Below are positions 21,552 through 26,115 of a stretch of DNA of 64,000 nt, one piece after another. Made by a program: the position numbers and the translations under genes. The DNA is from an uncultured delta proteobacterium. Lineage in GTDB: Bacteria; Desulfobacterota; SM23-61. Below the pieces are notes generated by a model. That model was not told where the DNA came from. It ran no database searches and saw only the letters and a program-made list of their open reading frames with translations. Numbering within the stretch: position 1 is the first letter of the stretch; each line of letters opens with the position of its first letter. The stretch is from the NCBI GenBank assembly GCA_963712535.1, contig CAVQIK010000008.1, forward strand, positions 34,798 through 98,797. The letters are read 5' to 3'.

Positions 21552-22542
21552 GTTTTCCCTCCGTTGCCGAACATGGCCTTGGCCATCTTTTCGATCATCG
21601 GCAGACCGGTGACATCCCGTTCCATCTCGGGGACCGAAGCCAGGATCTCGTTCTTGAAAGTCTCATCGATGAGCTTCAGGTATTTGTCCTGCATGGTGAT
21701 CCGGTGGCGCAGATACTCGGGGATGTCCTGGTTCTTCAGCTCCGGGGGAAGGACCCGGTTGATGATGTACCCGCTCAGGGGGACGTCGAACTTGGCGAAG
21801 AGCTGAGCGGCCTTCTGGGTGTCTTTGATGATCATCTCCTCGGGCACGATGACAAAGAAGAAGGCCGTCTTCTGCTTGTCCGTGAGGATGCTCGAGGATT
21901 TGTTGATCCGGTCTTTGATCCACAAGCAGCTCGGTGAGGATCTTGTCCTCCTCCGTTTCCTTCTCCCTCTTCACGATGGCCGCTACCTTGTCGTATTCGG
22001 CCATCTCGCCCCGGAGGTGGGTAATTTTATCGATCCAGGCGTCATACACCGAGGCCATGGAGAGGTAGTAGAGGGCATGACCCAGGGGAACGAGGTCGTA
22101 GATGTAGTAGTCATAGCCGCCTTTGACCACGATGTCCACGACTTCGTCGAAGATCGCGCTCTCTTCCATCGCCGGCTCGGCGGCCGCGGCCTGGATGTAG
22201 CCTTCGATCTCCTCGGGAACTTTCGGCAGCCCGTACATATCCAGGATCTTCTTGCGAATCTCGTCCTGGTATTCCTTGATCCGGCGGTCGGCGTCGATCT
22301 CCTGGGCGTAGAGGTTGGGCATGATCTCCACCGCGCCCTTTGCCGAAGATGTCCCGCTTGAAGATGTCGCTCAGCGAGGCCTGGGGGTCCACGGAAAAGA
22401 CCAGGACCTTGTGTCCCTTGCTTGGCCAGGTAATAGGCCGTAGCCGCGGAGAAGGTGGTCTTTCCCAGTCCTCCTTTTCCGCCGAACATGATGTACCGCC
22501 GGTCGGGAAACTTTTCAAAAATGTCTGCGAGTGGAATGGCAC
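21548..22542 (-). CDS. ArsA/GET3/TRC40-family ATPase, subunit 1 (frameshifted)
   Basis: RBS AAGGAGGT plus [73 protein letters not shown]. Confidence 0.85.
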
Positions 22543-22643
22543 ACCTCCTTCTATGGGTGAAGACATACGCTGGCTGCCTAAGAATTTATATTGGGCGATT
22601 CATGAGACCGGGCTCGAATTCCCGCCCGCTTTGGCTGGATCCC

Positions 22644-22938
22644 TTACGCCAGGGCGTCCGTCAGATCCCGCTCCCGGAGCATCCTCCGCTTCCAGGTGGA
22701 AATCTGGGGGACCACATAGGGCAGAATACGCAGGGAATAATAAGGAGGCAGAATGGGGACCCCCAGCAGGTCACCCATGGTGATCAGGATGAAGAGGTGC
22801 TCCATGCTCCCCCGGGTTTTCAGGGCGAACCGGGCGGTGTCGTGGGCCGCCATGCCGTAGATCATCTCCTTGGCGGCTTTTCCAAACCTGCTCGAAGATG
22901 CCTTTCTTGTTCCTCGATTTTTCTTCCTCTTTGGCCAT
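22644..22938 (-). CDS. Small hypothetical protein with one hydrophobic segment (cory-CC-star-like; one frameshift)
   Basis: RBS GGAGAAGG plus ATG 22938. MAKEEEK...GIFEQVWK joins AAKEMIYG...LFILITMGDLLGVPILPPYYSLRILPYVVPQISTWKRRMLRE after removing one base from the A-run. Confidence 0.7.
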
Positions 22939-23339: not shown

Positions 23340-25116
23340 ATGACGTCGTTATATGCTTTGATCTTGGGCATCGTCTGGATTGTTCTGGTCTACAAATTCT
23401 ACGCCAAATACATAGACCGGAAAATTATCATGGCCGACTCCAAGAAAGCGACTCCCGCCGTCATGTACATGGACGGGGTGGAGTTCATGCCCGCCAACAA
23501 AAACGTCCTCTTTGGTTTCCAATACAAATCCATCTGCGGCATAGGACCTGTCGCCGGGGCGATCTTCGCCTCGAACTGGGGCTGGCTGCCGGCCATGCTC
23601 TACCTCCTGCTGGGCGTGGCTTTGCTCGGGTGGGTCCATGACTACACCTCCACCATGGTCGGCGTCCGCAGGGAGGGAATGAGCCTGGGAGGCATGAGTT
23701 ACACCCTGATCTCTCCCCGGGCCAGAACCCTGATCAGCATCTTCATCTATTTCAACCTCATGCTCAGCTTCGGCGCCTTTGCGGTGATGATCGCCTCCAA
23801 CTTCACCGTCCCCACCGGTCCCCTGGGAATCATCATCTGGGTCCTGATGGGCCTCCTGGCCGGCCAGATGATTTACAAATGGAAGCAATCCATTGTGACC
23901 ACCACTCTGGTGACCGTGGTCATCACCTTCTTCGGGATCTTCTACCTGACCAGCCTGCCCTCGGTGACGGCATTTTTCAAAGCGATCAGCGGCGGCGACA
24001 AGCCCCCCATCATCTTCGGGGTCACCAACCAGGCCCAGTTCATCTGGACGATCGCGGTTCTGATCTTCTGTTATTTCGGGGCCATCCTGCCCATCTGGCG
24101 CTGGGCCCAGCCCATCAACTACCTGGGGTTCTGGGTGGTTTTCATCGGCATGGTTTGCATTTCGCTGGGAATCATCTTCTGGAATCCCTCCTTCGCCAAC
24201 TTCCCCGCTTACAAAGGATGGTGGTGGGGGACCAATCCTCTCTGGCCGATCCTTTTCGTGACCCTCATGTGCGGGGCGGTCTCGGGCTGGCATTCCCTGG
24301 TGGGCAGCTCGGGAACCGCCCGAATGCTGGAGAAGGAAACCGACACCCTGCCGGTGGCCGGCGGCGCCATGCTCCTGGAGATGATCATGGGCATGCTGGC
24401 CCTGATCATCGCCGTATCGGCCTTCGGGAGTTTTGATGGGTTTGCCGCCGCTATGAAGGGAGGAGGACCGCCCGCGGTCTTCACTGCCGGGGGCGCAAAA
24501 TTCTTCGCGGCCATCGGAATTCCGATCGCGCAGTGCCCTTGTCTTCGGCAACATCATGTTTGCCGTCATCGCCATGACCCTCATCCACCTGGGGGTGAGG
24601 TTCATGCGCCTCTACGGGGCTGATGTGCTCGGGGAACACTGGCCGATCTTCAAGAACGTCCAGTTTTCCACCATCTTCACCCTGATCATCTTCGGCGTCT
24701 TCTGCTTCACCGGGGTTCTGTCCACCCTCTGGTTCCTGGGAGGGGCGTTCAACCAGATGCTGGCCGCCATGGCCTTGCTCATCGCCACCTGCTGGCTGGC
24801 CTACGAGAAGAAGGCGTACGGGTTTACCCTCTACCCGTCCATCTTCCTCTTCGTGACCACCATCTCGGCGGCCATCTGGATCTCCTACAAGACGATCAGA
24901 CATTTCTTCATCACGCCGAATATCACCACGGACCGGGCCGTCGGCGACTGGCTCACGGGCCTGATCGCCCTCTTCCTGGTTTACTGTGCGGCGGTCTTGA
25001 TCAAAGACGGCTTTGCGGCCATAAGGAAATTCACCAGCGAAAAGCGAGCACCGGGCAAACCGGCTGCGGTGCCCGGCATCGGCGGAAGTGCAAGTAGGGA
25101 ATCAGGAAAGCAGTAA
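23340..25116 (+). CDS. cstA: Carbon starvation CstA-family transporter (one frameshift ~24540)
   Basis: TPAVMYMDGVEFMPA, LFGFQYKSICGIGPVAGAI, WGWLPA, GWVHDY, PILFVTLMCGAVSGWHSLVGSSGTARML, GGAMLLE. A second ORF supplies the remaining TM helices. Confidence 0.88.
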
Positions 25117-25225
25117 TTGAGTTCGGAGATCGGAGTTCGGAGAAAAGGAGGCAGTTCCTCCGAACTCCGAACTCCGTTCCTTCTTTTTGATCATTCGTCT
25201 TCCAAAAGCCTCATCGGGTAAAAGA

Positions 25226-25600
25226 ATGAAACCGATTATCCTCGAAGTCATTTCCCTGATCCCCGGCCTTTTCGCCAGCTGAACTCACTGTGAGTATGTC
25301 ACAGACCAGGTGGGTCTGAAGGAACAAGCGGGATAACCAGGACCTCAACGATTATCCCGAAGGACCTGAAGGAGGACTACCTGTTTCTCTCCGGATGGAT
25401 CAGGGAGTTATCCCAAAAATACCGGGAGAAATATCTTGATCCGGATTACCGACGCCCAATCCCTCCAGGGGTTTTATAAATCCATCCGCTACCGGGCCTT
25501 CCGCTACCCGGCCTTCATCATCAATAAGAAGAAGAAATACACGGGAAAGGACAAAGTCCGGCTCGACAGCCTCCTCCGGGAAGAACTGGGCAATGCCTGA
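25226..25600 (+). CDS. Thioredoxin-like selenoprotein with UxxC motif (not in ORF track; apparent +1 errors downstream)
   Basis: MKPIILEVISLIPGLFAS-TGA(25280-82)-THCEY. After correcting three single-base insertions (~25328, ~25361, ~25430) it reads DLKEDYLFLSGWIRELSQKY...IRITDAQSLQGFYKSIRYRAFRYPAFIIN...LREELGNA*. Confidence 0.7.
25302..25318 (+). promoter_or_regulatory. Putative bacterial SECIS hairpin
   Basis: CAGACC-AGGTG-GGTCTG with the loop starting 25 nt after the UGA. Confidence 0.6.
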
Positions 25601-26115
25601 CCTCCCGCCGTCCGCACCGCCCTCTGAGCGAAAAAAGCAGATCGTCGCCGCCAAGAACCTTCTATTCGGGACCGGCTATTTCCTGATCCTGTCCCTCCCC
25701 GAAGGCTGGGGGATTATCCGGAGTTATTTGGAGCCGGACGTTCATTCCACCGTGACGCGGGGGCGGATGACCTGGGTGGAGGCCGGCCAGGCGGATCAGA
25801 TCGTATTCAACCGCCACCGGAGGATTGCCCTCGATTTCATGATCCAGATCAAACGGGGAAAACACGATACCCTGGATCTGAAAGGGGTGCAGGTCTCTTC
25901 CCAGGGCTCGGGGATCGTGGGCGGCCATCCCGCTTCTTACTGTTTCGGAGAGGTGAAACAAGGTTTCATCAAGAAAGAAATCCTACAAGACCCTTCGCCT
26001 CTGCTTCTACTGCCCGGAGCTGCAGCACACCCTCTTTTTGCACTTCACCGGAAAATGCGAGGAGTCGGATCTGCAGGAAATTTTCGACTCCCTTGCCAGC
26101 CTGGAATGCCACTGA
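25593..26115 (+). CDS. Hypothetical protein ending in LECH (one frameshift ~25976)
   Basis: Start overlaps the upstream stop. After the shift it reads KKKSYKTLRLCFYCPELQHTLFLHFTGKC...LASLECH*. Confidence 0.6.

Follow-up and report, generated by a model that had tools for sequence, protein, structure and literature searches.

A putative thioredoxin-like selenoprotein gene behind cstA and its genomic association with the CstA-CstX-ArsA module

A 2026 review tabulated 119 selenoprotein families, nearly all of which are tied to an InterPro-type model, and gave a model of the bacterial selenocysteine insertion sequence (bSECIS) with an upper stem of 4-16 bp, a distance of 16-37 nt between UGA and loop, and a minimum free energy of -7.5 kcal/mol or lower (PMC13188914). 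Selenocysteine (Sec) has also been described beside transporters of the CstA/BtsT type, where the DUF466 (YbdD/YjiX) group includes the Campylobacter/Helicobacter KCU-star selenoprotein NF033934 (PMC4607533; bioRxiv 10.1101/2022.07.06.499078). In addition, cstA-cstX-(cstY)-arsA clusters were inferred from genomes by Castillo and Saier in 2010, with a cstX product of ~90 amino acids (aa) and one transmembrane segment (TMS), and arsA homologues of ~330 aa; no arsR or ars genes accompany these cst clusters (PMC2963123). In our literature search for a link between CstA, ArsA, Get3, and thioredoxin, this study alone turned up. Here we describe a gene behind cstA, designated TrxL, in a 64,000-nucleotide stretch (contig CAVQIK010000008.1, positions 34,798 to 98,797; hereafter, the window) of the metagenome-assembled genome (MAG) of an uncultured delta proteobacterium. 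TrxL very probably encodes a small thioredoxin-like selenoprotein, and its family is associated in genomes with the CstA-CstX-ArsA module.

The TrxL frame opens with the ATG at 25226 and reads MKPIILEVISLIPGLFAS up to an in-frame TGA (Table 1). The codons that follow the TGA, ACT CAC TGT, specify Thr-His-Cys, and the reading continues as T-H-C-E-Y-V-T-D-Q-V-G-L-K. The original prediction, made from the DNA letters alone, had proposed 18 codons followed by an in-frame TGA and Thr-His-Cys, together with three +1 errors farther downstream. Both proposals agree with what was found: the TGA is codon 19, and DNA alignment with intact relatives placed three extra single bases in the window gene. As a consequence of these bases, the coding parts are spread over all three frames, with the path 2 -> 0 -> 1 -> 2. 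After frame repair, the product is MKPIILEVISLIPGLFAS-U-THCEYVTDQVGLKDKRDNQDLNDYPEDLKEDYLFLSGWIRELSQKYREKILIRITDAQSLQGFYKSIRYRAFRYPAFIINKKKKYTGKDKVRLDSLLREELGNA, a protein of 123 aa (cysteine being Cys and Sec being U in sequences), and its stop is the TGA at 25598-25600. Indels aside, the window protein is 84-92% identical to intact homologues and shows no stop or missense decay. The tryptic peptide across the Sec would be PIILEVISLIPGLFAS-U-THCEYVTDQVGLK, with the local context GLFAS-U-THCEYVTDQVGLK.

The column occupied by this TGA was then compared among relatives. A six-frame search of 40 related genomes detected the protein in 12 genomes of the same family, and every copy (12/12) contained exactly one in-frame TGA, at the same column. 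More than 20 loci with an intact open reading frame (ORF) and a single TGA at the TrxL column were found, and they fall into four lineages. By named record, Sec forms belong to Syntrophaceae/Thermodesulfobacteriota MAGs, to Desulfobacteraceae, and to one Anaerolineae MAG; the fourth lineage (G239), another family of Thermodesulfobacteriota with the motif H-U-P-H-C-E, came from a phylum-wide search. Close to the window protein, P0002 (84% identical) shares the T-(TGA)-THCEY motif, and P0001 (88% identical) is a Cys form with TGC at the Sec column. Farther away, an exhaustive HMMER search of 1.84 billion representatives yielded 237 clusters, and C-x-x-C was found at the Sec column in 102 of the 111 representative clusters that cover the N-terminus (consensus H-C-x-H-C-E). 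An absence of Cys from this column in homologues had been named beforehand as a point that would speak against the gene; close (P0001) and distant homologues alike carry Cys there. The 18 residues ahead of the TGA are conserved, and in the Cys forms, they are continuous with the remaining protein. The spacing of the second Cys varies: most forms read U-x-x-C, one Syntrophaceae clade reads U-FDGN-C, and Desulfobacteraceae read C-N-U-G-H-Y. UxxC is accordingly not universal, with some orthologues reading UxxxxC or CxU, and the constant feature of the predicted Sec forms is Sec itself, not the UxxC spacing. As judged by comparison of homologues, the Sec/Cys pattern of the TrxL family is the classical signature of a selenoprotein. 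A genetic code with TGA as Trp was considered and rejected: TGA is also TrxL's own stop in the window and in relatives, and homologues show Cys, not Trp.

The same comparison revealed how the family is represented in databases. A collection of 5.8 billion proteins contained 186 TrxL homologues, all of them unnamed or "hypothetical." In the best 120 clusters, the column holds Cys in 16 and "W" in 5, and 98 are N-terminally short calls that begin at residues 24-31, just past the TGA. The "W" entries arose because gene callers translated TGA under another code. Of the truncated products, P0039 occurs on at least 24 contigs. Two of the places with short calls were examined (short-read JGI and ENA contigs), and both have an upstream in-frame TGA with the conserved N-terminus. 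NCBI records of the family are "hypothetical proteins" truncated to 93-99 aa. The gene had been described in the original prediction as invisible to the ORF track, and the 98 truncated calls among the 120 closest clusters extend that description to the family.

A hairpin resembling a bSECIS lies inside the coding sequence downstream of the TGA (Table 1). It satisfies all four (4/4) of the bSECIS constraints, with a 5-nt loop bearing G at position 2, a stem of 6 bp, an apical loop that starts 25 nt past the TGA, and an energy of -8.9 kcal/mol when folded alone. A perfect 6-bp hairpin with the loop AGGTG had been predicted to start 25 nt downstream; stem and loop stand as described, and the 25 nt proved to be the distance from the TGA to the loop, the stem itself starting at 19 nt. 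Sec forms from Syntrophaceae and Desulfobacteraceae have the hairpin at this spacing too. Because it overlaps the conserved peptide D-Q-V-G-L, synonymous sites were analyzed. Among 13 related Sec-form genes, whose counts are non-independent, the stem codon GAC was used in 13/13, compared with 45% of Asp codons elsewhere in the same genes, and the stem codon GGT was used in 12/13, compared with 16% of Gly codons elsewhere in the same genes. At the third base of the loop Val codon, all four bases occur. Fixed stem codons together with a variable loop codon are the pattern that an RNA stem lying over coding sequence would produce. Distant Cys forms are without the hairpin, and very close TGC forms retain it, which fits recent Sec-to-Cys switches. 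The Anaerolineae Sec gene has its own shifted hairpin, CCAAG-CGGGU-CUUGG, again with GGU in the loop.

We also searched the genome for the machinery of Sec incorporation. The gene for tRNA-Sec (selC, anticodon tca) is located at C14:180340-180438. selB, at C20:59213-61106, is broken by a frameshift into two pieces, which together span model positions 1-580 and score ~350 bits (cut-off, 242). selD was detected at C5:580098-581019 on the minus strand (331 bits), split by a frameshift. selD is itself Sec-containing (...RAAG-TGA-AAKLSPEDLEK...) and so provides independent evidence of UGA being decoded as Sec in this organism.

The fold was modeled with AlphaFold2 from the Cys form that is 88% identical to the window protein, together with 19 homologues. 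The model (predicted local distance difference test [pLDDT] score, 78; predicted template modeling [pTM] score, 0.73) has the topology beta-alpha-beta-alpha-beta-beta-alpha. The C/UxxC follows beta-strand 1, in a loop modeled at a pLDDT of <50, and helix 1 begins only at residue 33. In a Foldseek search against the PDB, nearly all of the top 50 matches were thioredoxins or thioredoxin-fold domains (probability, ~0.9-1.0; TM score, ~0.5; E, ~1e-2). Moreover, a profile of 56 diverse TrxL members matched the thioredoxin 4knd (E = 0.008), and the nearly invariant Pro94 of TrxL aligned with the cis-Pro of the 4knd IPT motif, before beta-strand 3. The modeled topology, the Foldseek thioredoxins, and the cis-Pro alignment all agree with the thioredoxin-like fold read from the letters alone, and a thioredoxin fold is supported for the family as predicted.

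No Pfam-A or NCBIfam (June 2026) model reached its cut-off with the window protein, its close homologues, or the other Sec lineages, and with the 56 diverse members, the thioredoxin-type models likewise stayed sub-threshold. The best near miss was Thioredoxin_6 (PF13848), with E = 9.7e-6 and 26.0 bits against a 27-bit cut-off, in a single truncated homologue (P0117); other sub-threshold matches were SaoT (E = 0.004-0.07), Thioredoxin_3 (E = 0.09), and Thioredoxin (E = 0.02). DUF1525/TIGR03757 was the only curated family matched by any TrxL member, namely by 7-8 of the 56 members, distant ones (best E = 2e-7 and 8e-7). The family has a signature of its own, PT.F.HC.HCE ... YP.dl ... LS.W ... 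D..S..G.wKslRhrvRrYPaFI, and TrxL matched none of the models for the 119 tabulated families. The suggestion that a Sec version may be undescribed is consistent with this lack of Pfam/NCBIfam matches and with the absence of TrxL from the 119-family catalogue; some metagenome survey may have listed the family as an unnamed candidate. A small thioredoxin-fold selenoprotein with U/CxxC is a well-known kind, and the TrxL family appears to be an uncatalogued and systematically mis-annotated one.

Next to TrxL in the window are cstA and a partner gene, designated LECH, and the order cstA -> TrxL -> LECH was found in 11 of 12 relatives of the same family and in Desulfobacteraceae. A cstX-like gene, which heads a divergent operon, and two Get3/ArsA-like ATPase genes are located upstream of cstA in the opposite orientation (Table 1). 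Clusters of the type cstA-cstX-arsA-arsA contain or adjoin TrxL in Anaerolineae and in another four families of the phylum. To quantify this association, CstX was sought with a protein query in 301 genomes across the phylum. CstX was present in 21/22 TrxL-positive genomes versus 21/279 TrxL-negative genomes (odds ratio, 258; Fisher p = 1e-19, uncorrected for phylogeny), and the TrxL-CstX pattern extends over at least eight families. Even in other clades, where the two are not neighbors, TrxL tracks the module. TrxL occurs in about half of the CstX-positive genomes and would therefore be an optional accessory. By gene order and co-occurrence, the TrxL family is genomically tied to the CstA-CstX-ArsA-homologue module. 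The original prediction had placed CxxC relatives in cstA neighborhoods, and the present data confirm this and extend it to a strong co-occurrence with the cstA-cstX-arsA module.

We propose that the ribosome would start at the ATG at 25226 and read the UGA at 25280 as Sec, with SelB and Sec-tRNA(Sec) recruited by the hairpin at 25302-25318 within the coding sequence. Translation would end at the TGA at 25598-25600, and because this stop overlaps the LECH start (ATGCCTGA), TrxL and LECH are predicted to be translationally coupled. Located in the loop after beta-strand 1, Sec would replace the N-terminal Cys as the attacking nucleophile of a selenol/thiol pair and would form a selenenylsulfide with the nearby Cys, whose movable position fits a flexible loop. 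The protein would be an accessory of the CstA-CstX-Get3/ArsA-like ATPase module, with a role in redox chemistry or chalcogen handling, and would probably act with the co-translated, Mog1/PsbP-like LECH, which ends in Cys-His. From its gene context, TrxL is probably a redox accessory of the CstA module, and its candidate client or partner is LECH, CstA, CstX, or the ATPases.

The As(III) chaperone that serves ArsA, ArsD, has a thioredoxin fold. By analogy, TrxL might not be a disulfide oxidoreductase but a metal(loid) or chalcogenide chaperone that passes its ligand to the ArsA-like ATPases. A thioredoxin fold, a Cys/Sec pair that is often flanked by His (H-C-x-H-C-E), and a position adjoining both Get3/ArsA-family ATPases and a membrane transporter would all suit such a role, and the best weak NCBIfam match of TrxL is the MTH895/ArsE thioredoxin-like family. 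However, no similarity to ArsD was detected, with no ArsD (PF06953) match in any Pfam/NCBIfam scan of TrxL proteins; moreover, these clusters come without arsR/ars genes (PMC2963123), and the flanking His is not kept in the window clade (S-U-T-H-C). We consider a chaperone role an unlikely but live alternative and retain a redox function as the preferred interpretation of TrxL.

The remaining alternatives concern the gene itself. The assembly comprises 5.9 Mb in 22 contigs, is 75% complete, and has 31 tRNAs detectable with ARAGORN. Several sister MAGs originate from long-read surveys. Single-base shifts split not only TrxL but also cstA (~24530), the downstream LECH (~25975), asd (from 26259), selB, and selD. 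Because shifts of the same type break these other genes, including asd, selB, and selD, we attribute the frameshifts to assembly indels; the three in TrxL are probably indel errors of long-read assembly and not gene decay. Since such shifts are frequent in the assembly, ORF-based readings of this genome therefore need indel-tolerant methods. Were the frameshifts real, TrxL would be a decayed pseudogene here, making no protein although its relatives still make it. Three frameshifts within 375 nt could be taken in that sense, and the failure to find selA in the assembly would fit a loss of the Sec trait. We regard decay as very unlikely, since like single-base shifts break cstA, LECH, the housekeeping gene asd, selB, and selD; the tRNA count, completeness, and contig number are typical of an unpolished long-read MAG; and, apart from the indels, the protein stays close to intact homologues and is free of stop or missense decay.

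It is more improbable still that a TGC was miscalled as TGA at 25280 and that the genome carries a CxxC form. The assembly is prone to errors, and the closest homologue, P0001, has TGC, shares the THC motif, and is identical in the hairpin. Nevertheless, the errors observed here are indels, not substitutions; the motif T-(TGA)-THCEY recurs in P0002, TGA included; of the 120 closest clusters, ~86% look like Sec forms (98 truncated and 5 with TGA translated as W); and the hairpin is intact. That the TGA is a true stop, with a ~95-aa product starting downstream and the 18-codon upstream ORF being a leader peptide or noise, is hardly credible, even though most records annotate 93-99-aa products and an in-frame GTG exists at 25310, because the called starts differ among orthologues (residues 24-31), the 18 codons before the TGA are conserved at the protein level and supply beta-strand 1, Cys forms run through the site with the family CxxC there, and the truncated product would have neither the first strand nor the conserved active-site motif.

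Several observations nevertheless weigh against reading TrxL as a thioredoxin-like selenoprotein. The TGA in this genome rests on one error-prone assembly together with homology, and P0001, the closest homologue in the databases, carries TGC. selA was not found in the assembly with PF03841, TIGR00474, tblastn with the SelA of a relative, or the synteny of its flanks. A search of 17 genomes located selA in 15 (9 of the same family and 6 of other families of the phylum). We read its absence here as an assembly gap because 25% of the marker genes are missing. The original prediction had held that a genome lacking selABCD would speak against the gene; selB, selC, and selD are present, and selA was not found in this 75%-complete assembly. 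With regard to the hairpin, its energy was unremarkable compared with shuffled sequences (z = -1.6 alone and -0.1 in context), pair counting gave 88% pairing with zero compensatory double substitutions, RNAalifold on 10 Sec forms picked a different, weak pairing, and an Rfam scan of 25100-25700 (E up to 10) gave no SECIS family. Furthermore, part of the hairpin conservation follows from recent ancestry and from the DQVGL peptide. Because energies, RNAalifold, covariation, and Rfam gave no support, the case for the hairpin rests on the model constraints and the synonymous sites. As for the fold, the thioredoxin similarity of TrxL is below every curated cut-off, and the C/UxxC loop belongs to the part of the model with a pLDDT of <50. 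Weighing these points with the conserved Sec/Cys column and the Sec machinery of the genome, we conclude from sequence comparison that 25226-25600 is very probably a real selenoprotein gene.

Table 1. Coordinates of TrxL, its sequence elements, and neighboring genes in the window (secondary-structure elements in residue numbers; E, strand; H, helix)
Feature	Position	Strand	Remarks
Selenoprotein gene TrxL (putative)	25226..25600	+	123 codons after removal of three 1-nt assembly insertions (probable)
In-frame TGA read as Sec (predicted)	25280..25282	+	Codon 19, first position of U-T-H-C
TGT, Cys of UxxC	25289..25291	+	Candidate resolving cysteine; position moves in some orthologues
bSECIS-like hairpin CAGACC-AGGUG-GGUCUG	25302..25318	+	6-bp stem, inside coding sequence
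First 1-nt insertion	25323..25324	+	GAA for GA; frame 2 -> 0; probable assembly error
Second 1-nt insertion	25360..25363	+	Inside GAAGGACC; frame 0 -> 1
Third 1-nt insertion	25432	+	T in AAATATC; frame 1 -> 2
AlphaFold2 elements of TrxL (Cys form)	E4-10, H33-68, E69-75, H79-87, E95-98, E102-105, H109-122		H33-68 is a helical hairpin
cstA (CstA-family transporter)	23340..25116	+	Split by frameshift at ~24530-24556
Long GC-rich hairpin with T run	25115..25190	+	Terminator-/attenuator-like; between cstA and TrxL
Partner gene LECH	25593..26115	+	~165-173 aa; start overlaps TrxL stop; frameshift at ~25975
cstX-like gene	22647..22938	-	Small hydrophobic protein (~95 aa), DUF7990; heads divergent operon
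Two single-domain Get3/ArsA-like ATPase genes	Right end 22566	-	Frameshifted; 21663-22566 examined

Among the neighboring features, the hairpin between cstA and TrxL has a folding energy of -44 kcal/mol over 121 nt (z = -3.1) and is built from GAGTTCGGAG-type repeats. Rfam returned for it only a spurious miRNA-like match of the kind given by a generic hairpin. The hairpin resembles a terminator or attenuator and may be a repeat element. Since a strong hairpin with a T run follows cstA, transcription of TrxL-LECH may be partly uncoupled from that of cstA. The product of LECH has conserved Cys residues, an F/Y-C-P/S-E-L motif, and an invariant C-terminal Cys-His, and profile scans assigned it no family model. 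Its predicted fold is a Mog1/PsbP/DUF1795-like sandwich (pLDDT, 77), with structural neighbors that include the SciW/Eag chaperones, holders of transmembrane helices. In one relative, the LECH orthologue is located at L037:4382-4885. An AbiEi/AbiEii-type toxin-antitoxin pair is inserted between LECH and asd in this and two other loci (L037:5115-6630, L039:5004-6666, and L067:6075-7452), and it is absent from the window and from L068. The cstX-like protein shows weak NCBIfam similarity to cory-CC-star (E = 8e-9). Two cstX-like paralogues are present in many genomes, often in tandem ahead of two arsA homologues (L076:8051-8633 and L077:1080-1680), and this pairing suggests a 2+2 stoichiometry with a heterodimeric ATPase.

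Some loci outside the clade of the window deviate from this arrangement. In the Anaerolineae MAG (RFKO01000017.1, L046, 553-4659), a single operon contains cstA, a Cys form of TrxL (CSHC), and a Sec form (H-U-P-H-C-E) and continues with a third TrxL-like paralogue without the Cys pair, a cstX-like gene, and a Get3/ArsA-like ATPase gene. Three tandem TrxL paralogues in different redox states, as seen there, are unusual. In the Sec lineage represented by G239 (L075, G239:C145, 1162-3275, minus strand), TrxL is directly 3' of the gene for a 471-aa DASS/anion-permease-like transporter, not of cstA, and the genome carries CstX elsewhere. In another clade (f12; L071:7049-8469), the Cys form reads C-R-Q-C, is not beside cstA, and is convergent with a gene for a cysteine-synthase-like pyridoxal phosphate enzyme with a Cys-rich C-terminal extension.

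If TrxL is a selenoprotein, the list of 119 families would be extended by one, whose Sec forms span two phyla and four or more lineages. Truncated "hypothetical proteins" account for about 100 of the 120 closest clusters, and a Sec-flagged family model would correct many records. The occurrence of Sec at one position would mark that residue of TrxL as catalytic and redox-active. The protein would also offer a first biochemical handle on the cstA-cstX-arsA module, which was predicted in 2010 and, according to the literature searched, never tested, and it would strengthen a pattern in which CstA-family transporters recurrently have small Cys-Cys or Cys-Sec proteins as partners. A broader proposal, which we regard as doubtful at present, is that TrxL and LECH are missing parts of a CstA-CstX-Get3/ArsA machine and that the CstA "pyruvate/peptide" transporters generally use a dithiol/selenothiol accessory. 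If so, DUF466 CC/KCU-star, cory-CC-star/CstX, and TrxL would be candidate accessories of CstA-family transporters, and the task of the accessory would be to gate, assemble, or charge the transporter or else to handle an S-, Se-, or metalloid-containing substrate moved with the help of the ATPase.

Comparison with described families places TrxL as follows. Although distant members match DUF1525/TIGR03757, an integrating conjugative element (ICE) protein family, the window clade gives no match to it, and DUF1525 is found in the context of ICE genes. To our knowledge, no Sec forms of DUF1525/TIGR03757 have been described. The thioredoxin-fold families listed in Table 1 of the selenoprotein review that we compared include PF00085, PF00462, PF13192 (Sec.1/Sec.2), SaoT (NF040730), HUIPC (NF047660), and VPGUxxT (NF041383) (PMC13188914). 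Like the UxxC selenoproteins among them, TrxL is small and has a single domain, with Sec as the first residue of C/UxxC after beta-strand 1; Cys homologues exist, and the SECIS-like element is within the coding sequence right after the UGA. Two TrxL lineages read H-U-P-H-C, which recalls the HUIPC motif. By contrast, TrxL reaches no cut-off of the models for these families, separates its motif from beta-strand 2 by a long helical insert (residues 33-68), and has its own signature with a movable second Cys (UxxC, UxxxxC, and CxU).

The composition of the window matches the module of Castillo and Saier, with cstA, a CstX-like protein of ~90 aa with a single TMS, and two ArsA/Get3 homologues of ~310-330 aa (PMC2963123). 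Their cst clusters, however, list no thioredoxin-like or CxxC component and no LECH-type protein, thioredoxins being mentioned only in ars operons (PMC2963123). The nearest parallel at the level of a transporter accessory is DUF466 beside CstA/BtsT, which is likewise small and whose Cys-Cys pair becomes Cys-Sec in some lineages. The two are unrelated in sequence and fold: DUF466 has ~70 aa and carries its pair at the very C-terminal end, whereas TrxL has 123 aa with the motif near the N-terminus.

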